Of a stretch of 32,000 nucleotides of DNA, positions 302-19,793 are shown one piece after another; the stretch's first letter is position 1, and every line of letters begins with the position of its first letter. This DNA is from Candidatus Omnitrophota bacterium. Its GTDB lineage: Bacteria; Omnitrophota; Gorgyraeia; 2-01-FULL-45-10. A model generated the notes under the pieces. The model saw only the letters and a list, made by a program, of their open reading frames with translations, had not been told where the DNA came from and ran no database searches. A program made the translations under genes and the position numbers. Location of the stretch: assembly GCA_023818895.1 (NCBI GenBank), contig JAMWCX010000003.1, positions 289,446-321,445 of the forward strand. Direction: 5' to 3'.

Positions 302-856
302 GTGGTTGTGAAGAAAATATCCAAAAGCGGATGCGAAGGGATTCTGTGCGCCGGATTCGGCGGTCAGGGCATAATGTTTATGGGGAAGCTTCTTGCCGAA
401 GCTGGGCTTCTTGCGGGAAAACGTGTGACATGGATGCCTTCCTATGGTGCCGAAGTAAGAGGTGGCACCGCATATTCAATGACTAAGATATCTAAGGAGG
501 CGATAGCAAGTCCCATAGTTACAAGTCCGGATGTCTTGATAGCGATGAATAAGCCGTCGCTTGTGAAATATGAGGCAAATGTCAGGCCCGGTGGTCTGCT
601 GATATACAACAAAACGCTCGTGGATGTTTTGCCTAAGAGAAAAGACGTAAAGATAATCGGTGTGCCAATGACGGAACTTGCTTCAAAACTAGGCAATACC
701 AGATGCGCGAACATGATAGCTCTCGGCGTGTTTCTAAAAAGGTCAAAAGCCGTCTCGATTAGATACGCTGTAAACGCCCTTAAAGCTGCCCTCAAGAATA
801 GGGAAGATCTTTTTGCTCTTAATAAAAAAGCGCTTGAGAAAGGGTACAGTCTGTGA
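302..856 (+). CDS. 2-oxoacid:ferredoxin oxidoreductase gamma subunit
   Basis: 184-aa ORF with a GTG start. GILCAGFGGQGIMFMGKLLAEAGL...SYGAEVRGGTA is the family-typical N-terminal motif of Kor/Por gamma subunits. Tightly linked to the beta fragment. Confidence 0.85.
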   Translation: MVVKKISKSGCEGILCAGFGGQGIMFMGKLLAEAGLLAGKRVTWMPSYGAEVRGGTAYSMTKISKEAIASPIVTSPDVLIAMNKPSLVKYEANVRPGGLLIYNKTLVDVLPKRKDVKIIGVPMTELASKLGNTRCANMIALGVFLKRSKAVSIRYAVNALKAALKNREDLFALNKKALEKGYSL

Positions 857-857
857 T

Positions 858-2138
858 ATGGTCCGTGTAAGATTTGCCCCCAGCCCTACCGGTTATCTCC
901 ATATCGGGAGCGCAAGGACCGCGCTCTTCAACTGGCTCTACGCCCGCCATTACGGCGGTAAATTCCTTTTGCGCATAGAAGATACCGATAAGACCCGTTC
1001 AGAAAAGAAGTACCTCGATGAGATATTGACCGACCTGCGCTGGCTCGGTCTGGACTGGGACGAGGAGCCGATATATCAGTCAGAGCGTTTCGACGTCTAT
1101 CGTGCCTCCGCTGAGGAACTCGTAAGGTCGGGCAAGGCCTATCGCGAGGGAGAGGCTTATATATTCAGGATCGAAAAAGGTAGAACCATTACCTTCGATG
1201 ACATGATCCACGGCAAGGTCTCCGTGAACACTGATGATATCAAGGACCAGGTTCTTATAAAATCGGACGGCTCTCCCGCATACAATTTCTGCTGTGTTAT
1301 AGACGACGCATTCCTCAATATAACCCATATAATTCGCGGGGACGATCATATTTCAAATACCCCAAAGCAGATACTTTTCTACGAAGCGCTGGGGCTACAA
1401 AGCCCGCAGTTCGGGCATATGCCGCTTATCATGGGCCAGGATGGAGCAAAGCTATCCAAGCGGCATGGCGGAGTGGCTGTAGAAGAATATAAGCGTCAGG
1501 GTTTCCTGCCGGAGTCGTTGGTGAACTATCTGCTTCTTCTCGGATGGTCGCCAGGTGACGACCGGCAGATAATTTCGCTTTCAGAAGCCGTAAAAATTTT
1601 TGATATAAAGGATATGAGAGGCGTTCAGGCGAAATTCGATTTGCAGAAATTGCGCTGGATGAACGGTGAGTATATAGCAGCGAAAAAGACTTCGGAGCTT
1701 CTTCCGCTCATTAAAAAACAGATTGCCGATGCCGCCAAAGAGATTCCGCCCGACGACAAGCTTGCTAAAGTCATAGACCTTTACAAGGTGAGAATAAAGA
1801 CGCTTTCCGAATTTATACCGATGACAGACCACTTCTTTAGTGATGTGTACACAGTCGAGGAAAAGGGCGTGGAGAAGTATTTAAAGCCCGCGGAGTCTAA
1901 AATGATCCTGCGCCAATTTGCCGATCGCATCGAGAGCTTGTCTGAATTTTCGCATGAGAACCTTGAAAAGACATGCCGCACCCTTGCCGAGGAAAAAGGC
2001 CTCAAGACAGCCCAGATAATCCATCCGACGCGGGTCGCGATAAGCGGCAAGACAACAGGGGCGGGGCTTTTCGAGATGATGGAGGTGCTGGGTAAAGAAA
2101 AGGTTCTGGAGCGTCTTCGGATGGCGCAGGGCGCCTAA
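858..2138 (+). CDS. gltX: glutamyl-tRNA synthetase (class I), 426 aa
   Basis: MVRVRFAPSPTGYLHIGSARTALFNW (HIGH motif) and KLSKRHG (KMSKS motif). The track ORF starts at 813, but the in-frame ATG at 858 gives the canonical N-terminus and avoids overlap with the upstream gene. Confidence 0.93.
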   Translation: MVRVRFAPSPTGYLHIGSARTALFNWLYARHYGGKFLLRIEDTDKTRSEKKYLDEILTDLRWLGLDWDEEPIYQSERFDVYRASAEELVRSGKAYREGEAYIFRIEKGRTITFDDMIHGKVSVNTDDIKDQVLIKSDGSPAYNFCCVIDDAFLNITHIIRGDDHISNTPKQILFYEALGLQSPQFGHMPLIMGQDGAKLSKRHGGVAVEEYKRQGFLPESLVNYLLLLGWSPGDDRQIISLSEAVKIFDIKDMRGVQAKFDLQKLRWMNGEYIAAKKTSELLPLIKKQIADAAKEIPPDDKLAKVIDLYKVRIKTLSEFIPMTDHFFSDVYTVEEKGVEKYLKPAESKMILRQFADRIESLSEFSHENLEKTCRTLAEEKGLKTAQIIHPTRVAISGKTTGAGLFEMMEVLGKEKVLERLRMAQGA

Positions 2139-2147
2139 ATTTTTGGC

Positions 2148-3842
2148 ATGGAAAAGAGTATAACCACCAATTTCATACGCGATATAATCGACGAGCACAT
2201 AAGAATCGGTCGTTTTGGCGGCAGAGTACATACACGTTTTCCGCCAGAGCCTAACGGATATCTTCACATAGGCCACGCTAAGGCCATTTGCATAAGCTTC
2301 GGCATAGCGCGAGACTACAACGGCCTTTGCAACCTGCGGATGGATGACACAAACCCAGAGAAAGAGGAGTCCGAATATGTAAACGCCATAATCGAGGATG
2401 TGCGTTGGCTCGGTTTTGACTGGGGCGATCGCCTTTACTACGCTTCGGATTACTTTGAAAAGCTTTACGGGTACGCACTCGAGCTGATAAAACTCGGAAA
2501 GGCCTATGTCTGCGACCTTAACGCTGAACAGATCCGGGATTTTAGAGGCACCCTTACCGAGCCCGGGAAGAATTCTCCGTTTCGCGACCGTTCCGTAAAG
2601 GAAAATCTCGATCTTTTTGAGCGCATGAGAAAAGGAGAATTCCCGGATGGCAGCCGCACCTTGCGCGCAAAGATAGACATGGCAAGCCCCAATATCATAA
2701 TGCGAGATCCGGTTCTTTATCGCATAAAGCGGGAAAATCACCACAGGACAGCGGATAAGTGGTGCATTTATCCAATGTACGATTTCGCCCATTGTCTTTC
2801 CGATTCGATAGAAGGTATAACCCATTCCATATGCACCCTTGAATTCGAGAATAACAGACCGCTTTACGACTGGATACTCGACCAGTTGAAGGTCCACCAT
2901 CCCCAGCAGATAGAATTCGCCAGGCTCAACCTATCGCACACAGTTCTTTCTAAGCGTAAACTTTTACAGCTGGTGCAGGATTCAAATGTAGAGGGCTGGG
3001 ATGATCCGCGCATGCCTACCATATCGGGCTTAAGGCGCCGTGGCTACACGCCGTCTTCAATAAGAAATTTTTGCGACAGTATCGGCGTGTCGAAGGTAGA
3101 TTCCATAGTTGATATTACCGTGCTGGAAAACACTATACGAGAGGAACTTAACAAGAGTGCGCCGCGAGCGATGGCGGTAATAAAGCCGCTCAAAGTCGTC
3201 ATAACCAACTACCCCGAAGGCAAAACTGAGGAGCTGGAGGCTATAAATAATCCAGAGGATCTATCAGCCGGTACACGCAAAGTGCCTTTTTCGAGAGAGC
3301 TTTATATCGAACAGGAAGATTTTCAGGAGACCCCCCCGCCTAAATTCTTCAGGCTTTCGCCAGGTAAGGAGGTCCGGCTGAGGTACGCCTATTTCGTGAA
3401 ATGCATAGGGGTCGTTAAAGACCCAAAGACGGGCCAGATCATCGAAGTCCATTGCACCTATGACCCGGCTACGCGCGGGGGAGACGCGCCTGACGGACGC
3501 AAGGTCAAGGCTACGCTCCATTGGGTGTCCGCTCGCCATGCCATAGAGGCCGAGGTCAGACTGTATGAGCTTCTCTTTACAGCAAGAAACCCCAATGATG
3601 TGCCGGAGGGCGTAGATTTCAGATCCAATCTGAACCCCAAGTCGCTTGAGATACTTAAAGAAGCCAGGCTTGAGCCATTCCTCAAAGATGCCCCACCAGG
3701 CAGCCGTTATCAGTTTGAGAGGCTGGGGTATTTTTATCTAGATCCGGTTTTTGCAAAGGCGGGAAAAAGAGTCTTTAACCGAATAGTTACCCTTAAAGAT
3801 AGTTGGGCGAAGGAGGCTAAAAAGGGCCTTGAAAAGCGTTGA
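2148..3842 (+). CDS. glnS: glutaminyl-tRNA synthetase
   Basis: 564 aa. FIRDIIDEH...[18 protein letters not shown] (HIGH), VLSKRKL (KMSKS), and the C-terminal beta-barrel anticodon-binding region typical of GlnRS. Starts 9 nt after gltX. Confidence 0.93.
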
Positions 3843-3867
3843 AAATCGGGCGCTTTTGATATAGAAT
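3839..3867 (+). promoter_or_regulatory. candidate sigma70 promoter for tRNA-Gln (TTGAAA-N17-TAGAAT)
   Basis: TTGAAA 3839-3844, 17-nt spacer, TAGAAT 3862-3867. Overlaps the glnS stop codon, about 100 nt upstream of the tRNA. Confidence 0.4.
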
Positions 3868-3967: not shown

Positions 3968-4041
3968 TGACGGGTAGTGTAACGGCAGCACAGCAGACTC
4001 TGGATCTGCTTGTCTAGGTTCAAATCCTAGCCCGTCAGCCA
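3968..4041 (+). tRNA. tRNA-Gln (anticodon CUG), CCA encoded
   Basis: Hand-folded cloverleaf. Acceptor TGACGGG/CCCGTCA (U1:A72, G73 discriminator as in bacterial tRNA-Gln). Anticodon stem GCAGA/TCTGC with loop CTCTGGA. T arm CTAGG-TTCAAAT-CCTAG. 3' GCCA. Confidence 0.9.
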
Positions 4042-4070: not shown

Positions 4071-4183
4071 GCTAGGATTTGAAACAAAATTTGCGCCGAC
4101 CAACGGGAGGAAAAGGCCTCTGGCCGTAAGCAAATTTTGATGGTCTGAAGCCACCTCTGGCGGATGAAGACCAAATCCTAGCC
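4071..4183 (+). ncRNA. tRNA-linked structured element, copy A (Gln-associated); unknown family
   Basis: Aligns with 5117-5220 of the Leu-linked units. Shared blocks: ATTTGCGCCGAC, GGAGGAAAAG, CCTCTGG, CGTAAGCAAATT, GGTCTGAAGC, GAAGACCAAATCC. Helices: H1 GCTAGGATTTG 4071-4081 / CAAATCCTAGC 4172-4182; H2 CAAAATTTGC 4085-4094 / GCAAATTTTG 4130-4139; H3 CGGGAGG 4104-4110 / CCTCTG 4117-4122; H4 GGTCT 4142-4146 / AGACC 4168-4172. The strand is inferred from co-orientation with the tRNA and the downstream terminator. Confidence 0.55.
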
Positions 4184-4861: not shown

Positions 4862-4948
4862 ATTCTTTTGGGCCTTTCCTTAAAAATCGCTTTCGTATAT
4901 TCTACCAATATCCTAAAGCTATGCAAGGTATTTCGGAGAGAAAACTGC

Positions 4949-4977
4949 TTGATATTTTAAGCCTGCCTCACTATAAT
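4949..4977 (+). promoter_or_regulatory. sigma70 promoter of the tRNA-Leu/element/tRNA-Glu operon (TTGATA-N17-TATAAT)
   Basis: TTGATA 4949-4954, 17-nt spacer, consensus TATAAT 4972-4977, about 28 nt upstream of tRNA-Leu. Confidence 0.65.
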
Positions 4978-5004
4978 AACATGGTAAAAGTTCGCTCTTT
5001 TTAC

Positions 5005-5089
5005 GCGGAGATGGTGGAACTGGCAGACACGCATGTTTGAGGGGCATGTGCCGCAAGGCTTGGGGGTTCAAATCCCCCTCTCCGCACCA
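5005..5089 (+). tRNA. tRNA-Leu (anticodon GAG), long variable arm, CCA encoded
   Basis: Acceptor GCGGAGA/TCTCCGC. Anticodon stem CATGT/GCATG with loop TTGAGGG. Variable arm TGCCGCAAGGCT. T arm GGGGG-TTCAAAT-CCCCC. 3' ACCA. Confidence 0.9.
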
Positions 5090-5233
5090 TGTTGTTTGAT
5101 AGTAGTAACGGCAGAAGGGATTTGAAGCCAATTTGCGCCGACGAACAGGAGGAAAAGTCCTCTGGACGTAAGCAAATTGGCCGGTCTGAAGCAAGCTATG
5201 CGAGCGGAAGACCAAATCCCCCTCTCCGCACCA
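5090..5233 (+). repeat. tRNA-linked structured element, 144-nt unit 1 (Leu-associated); ends with a copy of the last 21 nt of tRNA-Leu
   Basis: Identical to 5234-5377. Helices: H1 GGGATTTG 5117-5124 / CAAATCCC 5213-5220; H2 GCCAATTTGC 5127-5136 / GCAAATTGGC 5172-5181 (10 bp perfect); H3 CAGGAGGA 5146-5153 / TCCTCTG 5158-5164; H4 GGTCT 5183-5187 / AGACC 5209-5213. The 3' tail CAAATCCCCCTCTCCGCACCA equals tRNA-Leu 5069-5089. Confidence 0.9.
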
Positions 5234-5377
5234 TGTTGTTTGATAGTAGTAACGGCAGAAGGGATTTGAAGCCAATTTGCGCCGACGAACAGGAGGAAAA
5301 GTCCTCTGGACGTAAGCAAATTGGCCGGTCTGAAGCAAGCTATGCGAGCGGAAGACCAAATCCCCCTCTCCGCACCA
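5234..5377 (+). repeat. tRNA-linked structured element, 144-nt unit 2 (exact tandem copy)
   Basis: Base-for-base identical to 5090-5233 by eye. Followed by a 7-nt spacer and tRNA-Glu. Confidence 0.9.
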
Positions 5378-5384
5378 TAAACCT

Positions 5385-5462
5385 GGCCCCATCGTCTAGC
5401 CCGGCCTAGGACGTTAGGTTCTCAGCCTAAAGACCGGGGTTCAAATCCCCGTGGGGCTACCA
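5385..5462 (+). tRNA. tRNA-Glu (anticodon CUC), CCA encoded
   Basis: Acceptor GGCCCCA/TGGGGCT. D region TCGTCTAGCCCGGCCTAGGAC is typical of tRNA-Glu. Anticodon stem TTAGG/CCTAA with loop TTCTCAG. T arm CGGGG-TTCAAAT-CCCCG. 3' ACCA. Confidence 0.88.
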
Positions 5463-5555
5463 CTTATCATAACTCAAGTTTGTAACCACGCCCAATAAGG
5501 TCGGCAAAATTCGAACCTCAGTTCAGTATCGAGCGGATGAAGCGGCTTCAGTTTA

Positions 5556-5606
5556 TTTCGAAAATCGAAAAAAAAATTTCGAAAGCACTTGACAAAACTT
5601 TCGAAA
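5556..5606. promoter_or_regulatory. three copies of the palindromic octamer TTTCGAAA (candidate operator array)
   Basis: TTTCGAAA at 5556-5563, 5577-5584 and 5599-5606, spaced 21 and 22 bp. The third copy lies inside the promoter spacer of the HspR-like gene. Confidence 0.5.
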
Positions 5607-5617
5607 TATGATATATT
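5589..5617 (+). promoter_or_regulatory. sigma70 promoter with extended -10 (TTGACA-N17-TATATT, TG at -15/-14)
   Basis: TTGACA 5589-5594, TGATATATT 5609-5617, 25 nt upstream of the ATG at 5642. AGGAGG RBS at 5627-5632. Confidence 0.65.
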
Positions 5618-5641
5618 TTTTTCGGAAGGAGGAAGAGGCGT

Positions 5642-6536: not shown

Positions 6537-6905
6537 ATGGCACTAGGTCTTAAAAAGAATGCCAAGCAAACCTTAGCGCAGATAGCTCCGCTGGTAACCG
6601 TGCGTGAAACAGATAAAGAGGTTATCCTCGAAGCCGAAATGGCGGGTCTGGATAAAGATAGCATTAAAATAGAGTTAAAAGGCGATGAACTCACGATAGG
6701 GGGTGTCCGTAAAAATGAAGATGTACCGAAGGGCTACACACCTCTTAGCAGAGAAAGATGCCCATTCGAGTACTCGCGGACGTTTGTACTGGGCAATGAG
6801 GTGGATAAAGAAAAGCTGAGCGCCCAGTATAATGACGGTGTTCTTAAAATCACCGTGCCCAAAAGTGAGAGTAATCAGCCAAAAAAGATACCTATTAAGG
6901 ATTAA
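6537..6905 (+). CDS. small heat-shock protein, Hsp20 family (paralog 2, short N-terminus)
   Basis: 122 aa. VRETDKEVILEAEMAGLDKDSIKIELKGDELTIGG...YNDGVLKITVPK. The translation-initiation region GAAAGGGGGTGTTAAGTTATGGCACT is nearly identical to that of paralog 1. Confidence 0.85.
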   Translation: MALGLKKNAKQTLAQIAPLVTVRETDKEVILEAEMAGLDKDSIKIELKGDELTIGGVRKNEDVPKGYTPLSRERCPFEYSRTFVLGNEVDKEKLSAQYNDGVLKITVPKSESNQPKKIPIKD

Positions 6906-6980
6906 GAATGGCGGGCGCCTGAGGCCTAGAAGGACTGCCTCACGCGCCCAGGAGCTATGTGTTTCGAGGTGGTGAAGACA

Positions 6981-7628
6981 ATGAAGATGAAAATATTGAT
7001 CGGAGTGGTTATTCTGCTTTTATTAGTGCTGATCGGAGAGACGGCATATATTCTGTATATAGGGAAAGAACCGAATAGAGTAGGTATCCAAAAGACATCA
7101 AAAGCTCCGCATTCAATAGTTTCTCTCAAAAGGCATCCTATTACCCTATACGAAGAGGCCTATGACGAATGGGATCCTTTTGAAGAGATGAGGCTTATGC
7201 AAGCGCAGATGAACCGAATATTTAGAAATAGTTTTTCCCGCGCCTTGCTGAGTCAAGCATTTCCTGTGTCAAAACGAAGCGCTTTTTTTGAGCCGGATAT
7301 AGACTTTGAAGACAGCGGTAAATTCTATATAGCAAGAATAGACCTCCCCGGGATGGATAAAGATAAAATAAATATAGAACTAAAAAATAACATGCTGACC
7401 ATATCGGGCGAAAGGAGTATAGAGCGCGAAGAGGCTCGACCTGCCGATCAATTCTATTCTAAGGAAAGAAGTTTCGGATATTTTTCAAGAACTATCCCGA
7501 TGCCGGCTGACGCCAAAAGCGAGGGCATGACGGCAGAGTATGACAAAGGGGTGCTTGTAATAAAAATTCCGAAGGAAGACGTAGGTGTATCAACTCAAAA
7601 GGCATCCACAAAAATCAGAGTAGATTAG
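6981..7628 (+). CDS. Hsp20-domain protein with an N-terminal hydrophobic anchor or signal (paralog 3)
   Basis: MKMKILIGVVILLLLVLIGETAYILY is followed by a roughly 90-aa linker and an alpha-crystallin domain (PDIDFEDSGKFYIARIDLPGMDKDKINIELKNNMLTISGER...AEYDKGVLVIKIPK). ATG 6981 follows GAGGTGG; the track start 6957 is possible. Confidence 0.8.
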   Translation: MKMKILIGVVILLLLVLIGETAYILYIGKEPNRVGIQKTSKAPHSIVSLKRHPITLYEEAYDEWDPFEEMRLMQAQMNRIFRNSFSRALLSQAFPVSKRSAFFEPDIDFEDSGKFYIARIDLPGMDKDKINIELKNNMLTISGERSIEREEARPADQFYSKERSFGYFSRTIPMPADAKSEGMTAEYDKGVLVIKIPKEDVGVSTQKASTKIRVD

Positions 7629-7653
7629 AATGCGAGAAGAAGGAGGGCAATTT

Positions 7654-7746
7654 ATGGATTCGTTTATGTATGTCCAGAATTATTGCGCCCTTCTTTCATA
7701 TATTTATGAAAAATGGAGGAAAAAGATAAGACAAAGAAGCAGTTAA
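7654..7746 (+). CDS. candidate 30-aa small ORF (MDSFMYVQNYCALLSYIYEKWRKKIRQRSS)
   Basis: A strong Shine-Dalgarno AAGGAGGG (7640-7647) lies 6 nt before the ATG. No homology can be judged, so support is only RBS plus ORF. Confidence 0.2.
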   Translation: MDSFMYVQNYCALLSYIYEKWRKKIRQRSS

Positions 7747-10802: not shown

Positions 10803-10840
10803 ATTTGTGCTTCAAGAAACAATTTGTGCTGCAAGAAACA
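10803..10840. repeat. tandem 19-nt direct repeat (ATTTGTGCT[T/G]CAAGAAACA x2)
   Basis: 10803-10821 and 10822-10840 differ at one base. Located in the 84-nt gap before the 807-aa coiled-coil gene. Confidence 0.8.
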
Positions 10841-14649: not shown

Positions 14650-17247
14650 GTGAAGATGTTTTTTATACGACTCGCCATCTTTATATCAATAGCCCTCATA
14701 GTAGCGCTGTCCGCCTTCGGACAGCAGCTTTCATGGGAAGATTTGAGCAAAGAATCGTGGGAGCTCAGCAAGCAGGGTAATTTCCAGGAAGCGGTTTTGG
14801 CGGCAAAGAAGGCTCTTAAGGCCGCAATCGATGAATACGGCCCACATCATCAAAACGTTATTATCTCTCTTAACGTGTTGGCATCGCTTTATAAGTCGCA
14901 GGGACAATATGCTGCCGCCGAACCTTTCGTGAAAAGGGCGCTTGCCGTCCGCACCCTTTCGGTTGGAGAGAATTTGACCGAGCGGGATTACGCGGACATA
15001 TACAAAGGGATGAAAGATCTTTACGAGATATACAAACTTGAAAAAAAACTTGCTCACGCCGGCAAGACCCTAAGGCACGCTATAACGATCAAAGAAAAAA
15101 TCGTTGGAAATGAACACCCCGACATCGCTGCGGATCTTAAAGAGTTGATATCAATATATGAGGCAGAGGGGAAGCTTCACAGGGCCGAGCCGATATATAA
15201 AAAGGTGCTTGCCATCGAGGAGAAGACTCTTGGGGCTGACGACCCCGAAGTTCTAAAAACCATGAATAACCTGGCTGTCCTCTACAGGTCCCAGGGCGTA
15301 TATACCGATGCCGAGCCGCTTCTTAAAAGAGTGATCGAGATAACAGAGAAAAATCTTGGTCCTGAGAATGCGAGCCTCCCTACATATCTGAATAATCTCG
15401 GCACGGTATATTTTTACCAACTCCGTTTTTCGGAAGCCGCGTCGCTTTTCCAAAGGGCGCTTGCCATAGATGAGAAAAACCTCGGCCCAGATCATATCGA
15501 AATAGTGACGGACTTAAATAACCTCGCCACCGTGTACACTTACGAGAAGAAATTCAAAGAGGCCGAGGATCTTTATCACAGAGCCATGGATGTTACGGAG
15601 AAGAATCTAGGGCCTGAGAGCCAGAGGCTGATAAAATATATAAACAGCTTAGCCGCTTTATACGCCTACCAGCAAAAATTTGGCGAAGCCGAAGCGCTTT
15701 ATAAACAGGCGCTCGAGATAAATAGAAAAACGCTCGGACCAGAAGATCCCGCCGTGGTTTCGTTGTTTAACAGCATGGCGATGCTTTATGGCTCTGAGGG
15801 AAGATATGCTGAGGCAGAAGATTATTACGCCCAGGCGCTCGCTATATGTAATAAAGATACCGAAAGATATTATTCCGTACTTAAGGCGTCCCTTAGCGGT
15901 CTTGCTGACATATATGTGAAGCAGGGAAAATACTTAGAGGCGGAAGACACTCTAAAAAAACTGATAGCTGCCGCCGAAAAAGCGCTCGGACCCGACCACC
16001 CGGATGTAGTTACTGCCATTAAGGAATTAATATCAATTTATGAAGCGCAGAATAAATTTTCCCAAACAGAAGTGTATTACAACAGAATGCTGGAGGTAAT
16101 GCAAAATACCCTCGGACCCGACCACCCGGATGTTGCCAGCGCCATGAACAATCTCGCCACGCTTTACAGATCCGAGGGCCGCTATGCCAAGGCCGAACCG
16201 CTTATGAAAAAGGTAATCGAAATAACGGAGCGTACAGCCGGCTCTCAAGACAAGATGCTTCCTACATACCTAAATAACCTTGCCACTATATACTTCTACC
16301 AAAGCCGTTTGCCCGAAGCCGAAGCGCTTTTAAAGAAGGCCCTGTCGATAGATGAGAAAAACCTGGGGAGCGATCACGCGGACCTCGTGACTGACTTAAA
16401 CAATCTCGCTACGGTATATAGTTATCAGAAAAAATTCAATGAAGCCGAGATCCTGTATAAACGCGCGCTCGCGATAAACGAAAAGAACTTTGGACCAGAT
16501 AGCCAAAACACGGCGCTTTCCCTGAACAACTTAGCCTCCCTTTACGAGTCAAAAGAGGAATATGAGGCCGCAGAGAAGGCCTATAAAGAAGCGATAAGAA
16601 TAAGCGAAATAGATCCGAAAAACAATTATCCCATACTTAAAGCCTCGCTTAACAGCCTCGGTTCTGTGTACAGAGCGCAGGGCCGCTACGAAGACGCCGA
16701 ACAGATACTTCGCCGGGCCATATCCGTGGAACAGCAAATCGCCGGTCCTGAAAGCCCGGACATAGCCCAGACTATGAATAGTCTTGCGAGGATATATAGG
16801 GCGCAGGGCCGCTATTCAGAGGCTGAAGAACTGCTTAAAAATGTCATAATGATAAATGAAAAGACATTCGGCCTAGATAATCCCAATATGAAACCATATC
16901 TCAATAATCTGGCAACAGTATATTTTTACCAGAACCGCTTTGCCGACGCACAACCACTTTTGGAAAGGATTCTTGAGATAGACGAAGAGATATACGGTAA
17001 AGACCATCCTAACTTGGTGACCGACTTAAACAACCTCGCAACCGTATATTCCTATCAGGATAAATACGGAGACGCTGAGCTTCTTTACGGTAGAGCGCTT
17101 TACATATGCGAACATGCCGGCGTTAGCCCGAAAAGCACCGCCAACGTCCTCGAAAACATGGCCAACATGTATGAAAGACAGGGAGATATGGAAAAGTCGA
17201 GAGAATTCAGGAGGCGGTCGCAAGCCGTGGCTTCTAAAGGCGGATAG
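14650..17247 (+). CDS. secreted or anchored tetratricopeptide-repeat protein (kinesin-light-chain-like 42-aa TPRs), 865 aa
   Basis: N-terminal signal-like MKMFFIRLAIFISIALIVALSAFGQQ. Followed by repeated units of the form NNLATVY..Q.KF.EAE.LY.RAL.I.EK.LGPDHP.V. The start is GTG 14650 or ATG 14656. Confidence 0.85.
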   Translation: MKMFFIRLAIFISIALIVALSAFGQQLSWEDLSKESWELSKQGNFQEAVLAAKKALKAAIDEYGPHHQNVIISLNVLASLYKSQGQYAAAEPFVKRALAVRTLSVGENLTERDYADIYKGMKDLYEIYKLEKKLAHAGKTLRHAITIKEKIVGNEHPDIAADLKELISIYEAEGKLHRAEPIYKKVLAIEEKTLGADDPEVLKTMNNLAVLYRSQGVYTDAEPLLKRVIEITEKNLGPENASLPTYLNNLGTVYFYQLRFSEAASLFQRALAIDEKNLGPDHIEIVTDLNNLATVYTYEKKFKEAEDLYHRAMDVTEKNLGPESQRLIKYINSLAALYAYQQKFGEAEALYKQALEINRKTLGPEDPAVVSLFNSMAMLYGSEGRYAEAEDYYAQALAICNKDTERYYSVLKASLSGLADIYVKQGKYLEAEDTLKKLIAAAEKALGPDHPDVVTAIKELISIYEAQNKFSQTEVYYNRMLEVMQNTLGPDHPDVASAMNNLATLYRSEGRYAKAEPLMKKVIEITERTAGSQDKMLPTYLNNLATIYFYQSRLPEAEALLKKALSIDEKNLGSDHADLVTDLNNLATVYSYQKKFNEAEILYKRALAINEKNFGPDSQNTALSLNNLASLYESKEEYEAAEKAYKEAIRISEIDPKNNYPILKASLNSLGSVYRAQGRYEDAEQILRRAISVEQQIAGPESPDIAQTMNSLARIYRAQGRYSEAEELLKNVIMINEKTFGLDNPNMKPYLNNLATVYFYQNRFADAQPLLERILEIDEEIYGKDHPNLVTDLNNLATVYSYQDKYGDAELLYGRALYICEHAGVSPKSTANVLENMANMYERQGDMEKSREFRRRSQAVASKGG

Positions 17248-19442: not shown

Positions 19443-19793
19443 ATGGCAGAAGAGAGGATATGCAAAATTTGCGGTAAACCATTCCTTCCTAATAAATATC
19501 GTCCTAACCAGACCATATGCTCTTCACTCGAATGCCAGTATCAACGCCAGCTCGATAATATGAAACAGTGGCGGCAGAGAAATCCTAACTATTTCAAGTA
19601 TAAGGAAAGCCAGGATTCCTCGTGGAAGGAGACCTGTCGATCGAGATCGCTCGAATGGCGAAAAAGGCATATGGAGTATCTGAAGCTTTACAGGGAAGAA
19701 CACAGAGAACGCCACCGCAGCTACATGAGAGAATACATGAGAGAATATAGAAAGAAAAAACGCCTTGGCCAGGAAGGTCAAGCGGCTGTCTAA
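19443..19793 (+). CDS. small zinc-ribbon protein with a highly basic helical tail (116 aa), unknown function
   Basis: CKICGKPF...ICSSLECQ (a CxxC...CxxxC arrangement) followed by an R/K/E/Y-rich tail (RKRHMEYLKLYREEHRERHRSYMREYMREYRKKKR). GAGGT RBS 6 nt upstream. Confidence 0.6.
   Translation: MAEERICKICGKPFLPNKYRPNQTICSSLECQYQRQLDNMKQWRQRNPNYFKYKESQDSSWKETCRSRSLEWRKRHMEYLKLYREEHRERHRSYMREYMREYRKKKRLGQEGQAAV

Follow-up and report, generated by a model that had tools for sequence, protein, structure and literature searches.

The window analysed here, a 32-kb stretch of Omnitrophota DNA, carries two tandem repeat units between two tRNA genes. tRNA-Leu(GAG) is located at positions 5005-5089 of the forward strand and tRNA-Glu(CTC), the downstream end of the operon, at 5385-5462 of the same strand; both genes were called by ARAGORN and Rfam. 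Unit 1 (5090-5233) and unit 2 (5234-5377), also on the forward strand, are 144 nt long and base-identical, and a spacer of 7 nt (5378-5384) separates unit 2 from tRNA-Glu. Each unit ends with a copy of the tRNA-Leu tail, that is, of its last 21 nt (5069-5089), which correspond to tRNA positions 56-76, from the T-loop to the CCA end.

A 144-nt period was detected by Tandem Repeats Finder at 5069-5378 (2.2 copies, 100% matches, score 620), and direct string comparison showed that 5090-5233 and 5234-5377 are exactly equal. The suffix common to each unit and tRNA-Leu was exactly 21 nt, CAAATCCCCCTCTCCGCACCA, leaving 123 bp of unique DNA per unit. An earlier inspection of the letters alone, referred to below as the sequence-only reading, had described two base-identical 144-nt units that end in the last 21 nt of tRNA-Leu and lie 7 nt upstream of tRNA-Glu, and the repeat search, the string comparisons and the tRNA calls agree with it on these points. 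The sigma-70-like promoter site that it had placed upstream, TTGATA-17-TATAAT, was recovered at 4949-4977 (forward strand) with 11 of 12 consensus matches, and no terminator-like site was found between tRNA-Leu and tRNA-Glu (5005-5462). Both results are in accordance with its proposal that the units lie inside a tRNA transcription unit, with 4949-4977 as the putative promoter.

The neighbouring genes are ordinary chromosomal ones, encoding pyruvate:ferredoxin oxidoreductase, GluRS, GlnRS, a DedA/VTT membrane protein and a MerR-type regulator, and the window also contains genes for three Hsp20 proteins, GroES/EL, a ParA-like ATPase, a large TPR protein and an RND efflux system. The DedA and GlnRS proteins showed 100% identity to those encoded on a 321-kb Candidatus Omnitrophota MAG contig. 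Integrase, transposase and reverse transcriptase were not found in the 32-kb window by Pfam scans of 20 ORFs.

The source contig belongs to a metagenome-assembled genome (MAG). The unit region has the identical sequence in a second deposited assembly, GCA_023818765.1 (L001), in which the first base of the contig falls within unit 1, 126 nt ahead of unit 2. Given the MAG source and this start within the repeat, the two identical copies are to be read as at least two, or as one copy plus a circular or junction form, and the 100% identity of units 1 and 2 says nothing on their age. The junction between the units reads ...ACCA/TGTTG..., with unit-specific sequence on both sides; it is reproducible, since it is present in two deposited assemblies, and its existence is not in doubt. 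It is very improbable that the tandem duplication is an assembly artefact, or a collapsed or expanded repeat, from a chromosome with one unit or with many. The short-contig context of the MAG, the start of the second contig, two other contigs that likewise end at such elements (L035 and L150) and the habit of graph assemblers, which typically output a tandem repeat as two identical copies, would all suit an artefact, but a single chromosomal copy cannot yield the unit-to-unit junction seen in two deposited assemblies, and single units of the same design in L040 and L035 indicate that the element itself is no artefact.

Further copies and relics

The same window holds a diverged third copy at 4072-4183 (forward strand), which the sequence-only reading had overlooked. 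Its host is tRNA-Gln(CTG) (3968-4041, forward strand; ARAGORN and Rfam), with a promoter-like site at 3839-3867. The copy was recovered as repeat families D6 and D7 and by covariance model R1 with 109.1 bits; the same model scored 115.4 bits at 5118-5219 and at 5262-5363. Its helix H1 is CTAGGATTT/AAATCCTAG, matching the T-stem of tRNA-Gln, and it ends in CAAATCCTAGCC (4172-4183), 12 nt of the 3' part of tRNA-Gln, the rest of the tail having been lost.

A metagenome scan with a pattern made from H4 and H1 gave eight matches, two of which were true copies. One (L035) is a Gln-type copy that ends in the full 21-nt tRNA-Gln tail, CAAATCCTAGCCCGTCAGCCA. The other (L040) follows tRNA-Met(CAT), located at 1040-1116 of its contig, after a spacer of about 170 nt, and ends in the last 21 nt of tRNA-Met. 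Two relics, recognized by the signature GGATTTGAA..YGCCGRC, were located behind tRNA-Glu in L156 (5923-5947) and behind tRNA-Gln in L150 (5181-5205), and this signature occurred nowhere else in 1.2 Mb of compared DNA. A covariance model built from four copies found only the known copies in 182 kb.

The same core is present behind tRNA-Leu (twice), tRNA-Gln and tRNA-Met, with relics behind tRNA-Glu and tRNA-Gln; every copy and relic lies downstream of its tRNA and is co-oriented with it, and each copy with a full tail matches its own tRNA. The final 12 nt of the tRNA recurred exactly within 1.2 kb downstream for 3 of 20 tRNAs in Omnitrophota loci vs 0 of 29 in unrelated loci. Comparison of the plus-frame translation with 1.84 billion representative proteins gave two further traces, both as protein only, one of which reads through a tRNA-Asn-like gene (read by eye) and then into the element core; the minus-frame translation gave no protein matches. 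The element family is real but rare, and general statements on Omnitrophota rest on about 10 loci.

Several candidates were rejected. Genome contigs were scanned with the pattern TTTGCGCCGACN{18,32}CGTAAGCAAA, and 24 of the 26 matches belonged to one conserved coding sequence, by eye relA/spoT; the pattern matches in L024 and L028 were due to chance. The only non-coding match, behind tRNA-Thr in a Treponema MAG (L023; 11.6 bits with the covariance model, E = 0.65), is devoid of H4 and was rejected as unproven. Three patterns gave chance matches or none in viral contigs, and phage and plasmid collections gave no blastn match.

Fold, covariation and coding capacity

Unit 1 starts with an AU-rich linker (5090-5108), followed by the outer 5' arm CGGCAGA (5109-5115) and the 5' strand of H1, GGGATTT (5117-5123). 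After the junction GAA (5124-5126), the 10-bp helix H2 (5127-5136 paired with 5172-5181) encloses the H3 region (5137-5171). H4 (5183-5213) consists of GGTCT/AGACC, a GAA/GGA internal loop and a distal hairpin, and the 3' strand of H1, AAATCCC (5214-5220), lies in the copy of the tRNA-Leu tail (5213-5233). The minimum-energy fold of a single unit (-51.9 kcal/mol, z = -3.6) holds H1 to H4, including every helix that the sequence-only reading had drawn: H1 (GGGAUUU/AAAUCCC), the 10-bp H2, the H3 hairpin and H4 (GGUCU/AGACC). The anatomy of the element is an AU-rich linker, a three-way junction of about 105 nt (H1, H2/H3 and H4) and a copy of positions 56-76 of the host tRNA.

Four distinct full copies, aligned in structural register, were available for structural comparison. 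RNAalifold recovered the same helices from them without structural input. In H2, four pairs are changed on both sides and one A:T pair is changed to G:T, with no broken pair in the four copies; H4b, the distal helix of H4, shows one compensatory pair, and H1 and the base of H4 are invariant. In a MAFFT alignment 96.4% of the cells were paired vs 26-54% when the partners were slid by 1-3 columns. The proposed fold therefore holds on its compensatory changes in H2 and H4b and on the RNAalifold agreement, and helix-breaking substitutions in further copies, which had been named beforehand as evidence against it, were not found in H2. The covariation is real but thin, with 3-5 pairs from four distinct full copies, below R-scape-level statistics. 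Wobble G:T pairs occupy three sites on the tRNA strand vs one on the opposite strand, a distribution that weakly favours an RNA read from the tRNA strand; the conserved helices could serve a single-stranded DNA intermediate instead of an RNA.

In the element, H1 is formed by the proximal part of the tRNA-derived tail and the 5' arm, while the distal part of the tail pairs with the outer 5' arm in most copies. This outer complementarity was assessed by unconstrained duplex energies of cognate vs non-cognate tails. The cognate tail was clearly the best for the outer arms of the Gln copy in L035 and of the Glu relic. The outer arm of the Met copy gave -12.4 with its cognate tail, behind the near-identical Val tail (-15.2) and the Gln tail (-13.7). 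For the tRNA-Leu unit of the window the outer arm vs the acceptor strand gave -6.3 kcal/mol, no better than non-cognate tails, and thus no matching of its outer arm is claimed. The left boundary is not conserved, the linker ranging from 19 to 173 nt among copies. A free acceptor-like end is not found in every unit, since base pairing takes up the CCA end of the Met copy and of some unit types.

No Rfam family matched any unit, even at permissive thresholds, in line with the sequence-only reading, which had recognised no RNA family, and no tmRNA, tRNA-like RNA or self-cleaving ribozyme was detected in the units by ARAGORN and Rfam models. The CUGAAG...GGAA loop resembles the tandem-GA motif of hammerhead ribozymes, but it misfits the hammerhead core by eye and has no Rfam ribozyme match. 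The likeness of GGAGGAAAAGUCC to the conserved GAGGAAAGUCC of RNase P is regarded as a coincidence, since G or C takes the place of its U in other copies.

The units were also considered as the gene of a small repetitive protein, as in the 'protamine-like' tpr ORF of the E. coli tyrT repeats, which E. coli annotation places inside a unit of the RtT type described below. The length of 144 nt equals 48 codons, an ORF of 106 aa with an ATG (5089-5409) is open through both units, and the Met copy is open in the same frame. Coding is nevertheless extremely improbable. No reading frame is open across all four copies; the Gln-type copies carry two 1-nt indels, with stops or frame shifts and stops in every forward frame, and an unrelated 180-nt unit (L150) has stops in all three forward frames. 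Substitutions are paired across helices and are not at third codon positions, and no ribosome-binding site is present. The two matches among 1.84 billion representative proteins are weak and both are read-through translations. The units are consequently regarded as non-coding, as was first suggested.

Occupancy of tRNA 3' ends in related genomes

Homologues of DedA and GlnRS led to the related Omnitrophota genomes. An intact element behind tRNA-Leu is present in one of six related genomes, and each of the six differs from the others in what it carries at these tRNA 3' ends. In L029 and L155, tRNA-Leu is followed by an empty spacer of 25-28 nt before tRNA-Glu. In L151 it is followed directly by TACTACGCCTTC and then by a small GIY-YIG ORF. 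In L150, two identical 180-nt units, unrelated to those of the window, stand between tRNA-Leu and TACTACGCCTTC. In L156 the site holds a hairpin-rich spacer without any copy of the tRNA-Leu tail. Other sites are also occupied: L155 has an 87-nt hairpin unit ending in CAGCCA after tRNA-Gln and a 110-nt unit after tRNA-Glu, and L156 has an 86-nt hairpin unit after tRNA-Gln.

The 180-nt units of L150 each end in AAATCCCCCTCTCCGCACCA, 20 nt of the tRNA-Leu tail. They fold strongly (z = -4.6), with two C(UUCG)G tetraloops, and their 5' arm GCGG-UAU-GGGGG faces the tRNA-derived CCCCC-UCU-CCGC. The unit after tRNA-Glu in L155 ends in AAATCCCCATGAGCTACCA, closer to the tRNA-Glu variant of other genomes than to the local one; its tail is of the CCCCA variant and the local tRNA-Glu reads CCCCG, so this tail is a relic and is not kept matched to the tRNA.

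Comparison of the filled site of L150 with the empty site of L151 shows that insertion is precise at the tRNA 3' end. By these sequence comparisons, the tail appears to be a copy made at insertion that then decays, with occupancy turning over quickly. The sequence-only reading had set aside an obvious miniature inverted-repeat element (MITE) for want of a target-site duplication; given the precise insertion vs empty sites in relatives, the 21-nt tail that flanks the units behaves like a duplicated target. Compared with MITEs, the arms form an imperfect inverted repeat that changes with the host tRNA, and with its 21 nt the flanking repeat greatly exceeds the length of known target-site duplications. 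Another of its suggestions, a tRNA-targeting miniature mobile or recombination element, is the best fit to the presence and absence data, and the copy number, which it had proposed to compare among relatives, does vary, with empty sites, unrelated units and relics.

A regenerated tRNA 3' end together with a displaced fragment is given as the signature of tRNA-gene islands in the Islander paper (PMC4383910). As described there, islands and prophages in tRNA genes have a direct repeat of the 3' part of the tRNA, from the T-loop, at both ends of the insert, and the units agree with them in this repeat, in precise insertion vs empty sites and in different cargo at the same tRNA between genomes. 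The units differ from them in having no nearby recombinase, a cargo of 123 bp, a covarying fold and one core with several tails. On this basis the units might be the scar or miniature form of a site-specific integrative element, whose recombinase, usually a tyrosine integrase, makes its crossover within the tRNA T-loop; the element would restore the tRNA 3' end, and the displaced fragment would mark its far end. The 144-nt unit would then be either a non-autonomous mini-element that is mobilised in trans or an island end that has decayed, and repeated integration would give the tandem pair.

This integrative origin is a minority possibility. The repeated block runs from the T-loop to the CCA in three unrelated unit types (21, 20 and 19 nt), matching the island signature (PMC4383910), and the mixed arrays of units in L035 and L150 have the look of stepwise accretion, in addition to the precise insertion and changing cargo already described. 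However, the 32-kb window is free of integrase, transposase and reverse transcriptase, 123 bp of unique DNA is far under the size of any known integrative element, and no copy was found in viral or plasmid collections. The junction GGAAGAC/CAAAT shows no T-arm-like inverted core site, and compensatory changes in internal helices are unexpected for recombinase arm sites. A crossover in the T-loop would also give the tRNA of a new host the tail of the old one, whereas intact cognate tRNAs adjoin the Leu, Gln, Met and Glu tails. A simple integrase crossover is disfavoured, since the hybrid tRNAs that it predicts were not seen. Other candidate routes are homology-driven or template-switch events, a folded single-strand intermediate and tRNA-primed copying.

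The occupancy data also bear on a host-beneficial RNA, the main idea of the sequence-only reading. The tRNA-like ...ACCA end of such an RNA would make it a decoy or titrating target for an enzyme or toxin that binds the 3' ends of tRNAs, or the RNA would serve as a sponge or modulate processing. Functional spacer and trailer RNAs of tRNA operons are known in E. coli, for example 3'ETS-leuZ, and lend this proposal a precedent. The units resemble them as a non-tRNA segment of the precursor, possibly released by tRNA-processing nucleases. RNAs of the 3'ETS-leuZ type are single-copy and conserved at their locus, have no tRNA-tail copy and do not recur behind a number of tRNAs. The conserved fold, with its covariation on the tRNA strand, and the embedding in tRNA transcription units speak for such a role, and the strictly conserved loops (GGUCUGAAGC...GAAGACC and GGAGGAAAAG) behind different tRNAs suggest a binding partner. 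It is considered unlikely all the same. Occupancy is patchy, the element being intact behind tRNA-Leu in only one of six relatives; elsewhere, sites are empty or occupied by unrelated units or truncated relics; the tail of the window Gln copy is decayed; and the Met copy and some unit types have their CCA end in a helix. A conserved host function or regulator is not favoured, because six relatives differ at their tRNA 3' ends and several copies are truncated relics.

Relation to RtT repeats and proposed origin

Knowledge of the 178-bp repeats in the tyrT region of E. coli goes back to the late 1970s. The sequence-only reading had recognised no precedent for units of this kind, and these repeats share their architecture. 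The tyrT-tyrV region of E. coli K-12 gave four hits to RF00391 (RtT), with 133-138 bits, and each of its units closes with the 19 nt that also end tRNA-Tyr, AATCCTTCCCCCACCACCA. The consensus outer helix of RF00391 pairs the 5' arm GgGaaGG with the tRNA-derived CCuuCcC around a multi-branch interior, and the RtT core was found in 4738 of 5426 complete E. coli genomes, in 1-10 places per genome. RF00391 itself had no hit in the window at the gathering score and none in 4900-5600 at E <= 10.

RtT (RF00391; rttR; the 178-bp repeats of tyrT-tyrV) and the Omnitrophota element are both made of non-coding tandem units directly behind a tRNA and on its strand. In both, the unit ends in a tRNA segment from the T-loop to the CCA (19 nt in E. 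coli and 21 nt in Omnitrophota), the closing helix joins a 5' arm to the tRNA-derived T-stem strand around a multi-branch interior, and the copy number varies between genomes. They differ in that there is no similarity in sequence or by covariance model, the interior helices are others and the phylum is another; moreover, one and the same Omnitrophota core is found with at least four tRNA species and has a tail to match each of them. The element is absent from Rfam, but its architecture has a long-known precedent in E. coli RtT.

The rtT RNA has been described as processed from the tyrT transcript and is summarised as taking part in the processing of this adjacent transcript, with rttR said to act in a way still unknown, and elevated 'mobilome' coverage of the tyrT region has been noted under stress (bioRxiv 10.1101/2024.07.17.603846). 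The function of RtT is itself unsettled, and thus the likeness transfers little mechanism.

The units are probably a fast-turnover, RtT-like, tRNA-linked structured repeat of Omnitrophota, an analogue and not a homologue of enterobacterial RtT. They would be co-transcribed with tRNA-Leu and tRNA-Glu from the promoter at 4949-4977. By analogy with rtT RNA, tRNA-processing nucleases may cut them from the precursor, and the released RNAs would be of about 125-144 nt and end in ...ACCA. The 21-nt direct repeats could drive changes in copy number by unequal recombination or slippage, giving the tandem pair. We infer that the element is largely a selfish or neutral passenger of tRNA operons, its fold being kept either for its own persistence and spread or for tolerance inside the tRNA precursor.

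A more speculative proposal, and a distinctly unlikely one, is that the units are integrated copies of a tiny mobile element, autonomous in RNA or single-stranded, for which the tRNA 3' end acts as primer or recombination partner. In a first route, a small template, which may be circular, would be reverse-transcribed from a tRNA primer or from a start at the CCA, to produce concatemers of the type tRNA-unit-tail-unit-tail. These would enter the tRNA gene by homology, as the hybrid cDNAs of Neurospora retroplasmids reportedly do. In a second route, a folded single-strand hairpin, whose imperfect stem mimics the 3' end of a tRNA gene, would recombine like CTX-phage and attC sites. If true, either route would explain why the tail always matched the adjacent tRNA at the time of insertion, why the 5' arm complementary to the tail is conserved, like a primer-binding site, and why tandem units and unrelated cores of one architecture are present in two phyla.

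Integron attC sites and the attP hairpin of CTX phage have a conserved structure with covarying sequence, an imperfect stem that mimics a duplex target, and tandem arrays. Their resemblance to the units is a lead only. The units differ from them in having no integron integrase, dif-type target or conserved R'/R''-type core, and in wobble pairs that favour the RNA-sense strand.

That this design recurs in an uncultured phylum far from E. coli suggests that the process behind it is a general one, in which a tRNA tail closes a folded, non-coding unit that is repeated in tandem. At least two unrelated cores show the design, which occurs behind no fewer than four tRNA species, and it opens a comparative study of intact and relic copies, of filled and empty sites and of one core across several tRNAs. 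In genome data, the units break metagenome assemblies at tRNA genes, create spurious ORFs and can be mistaken for integration scars.

Gene order and variable DNA between tRNA-Leu and tRNA-Glu

Immediately behind the gene of a GluRS-type synthetase lies that of GlnRS, with tRNA-Gln next in line (positions 813-3842 of the window). The order GlnS, tRNA-Gln, tRNA-Leu, tRNA-Glu is common to the window and to four loci of related Omnitrophota genomes, L150, L151, L155 and L156, and despite this conserved order the DNA between the tRNA genes is different in each of these four relatives.

The tRNA-Leu/tRNA-Glu spacer of three related genomes contains a small ORF of the GIY-YIG nuclease family, 83-96 aa in length (L150 6773-7021, L151 5684-5974 and L152 3802-4092), and no such ORF was present in this spacer in the window or in L029 or L155, the two relatives in which it is empty. 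The GIY-YIG ORF is a further variable insert at this hot spot, and a nuclease working close to tRNA 3' ends could have a bearing on the insertion of the units. In L151, a large serine recombinase gene with Resolvase, Recombinase and Zn_ribbon_recom domains (6760-7698) was located just downstream of tRNA-Glu, which suggests a separate integrated element at this tRNA cluster.

The 'empty' spacer of L029 (3329-3303, minus strand) is 25 nt long and reads TTATTTGT-ACCA-TAAAACTACACCC. Within it, 8 T-rich bases similar to the starts of the 144-nt units of the window and of the unrelated 180-nt units of L150 are followed by a second ACCA. The spacer is possibly a scar left by a deleted unit.

Hairpins behind tRNA genes

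Many Omnitrophota tRNAs carry an AU-rich hairpin (AAAUUUUGC...GCAAAAUUU) immediately 3' of the CCA. Hairpins 3' of tRNAs were located at L155 5300-5386, L156 5312-5397 and L040 1416-1440, and on the minus strand of L035, downstream of its copy of the element (the folded core of the 144-nt unit). In two genomes the AU-rich hairpin is followed by a second, long hairpin with closing pairs UGGC/GCCA, strong predicted folding (z = -4.9 and -7.7) and the end CAGCCA, identical to the final 6 nt of tRNA-Gln. These CAGCCA-ended hairpins are a unit type of their own, with a tail of just 6 nt.

L040 also encodes an RNase P RNA of bacterial class A (3034-3463, 148 bits), about 1.4 kb downstream of the tRNA-Met/element/tRNA-Val cluster.

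Heat-shock gene upstream region and other repeats of the window

Three TTTCGAAA palindromes (window 5556-5627) flank on both sides a strong promoter-like site, TTGACA-17-TATATT (5589-5617), upstream of the genes of a MerR-type regulator, three Hsp20 proteins and groES/groEL. The palindromes likely constitute a heat-shock operator at which the MerR/HspR-like repressor would act.

Two short tandem repeats were detected, of 19 nt in 2.0 copies (10803-10840) and of 12 nt in 2.2 copies (19722-19747). The gene at 14650-17247 encodes a protein of 865 aa consisting almost entirely of TPR repeats; its DNA shows a periodicity of 126 nt and includes the repeat families D1, D2, D4 and D5.
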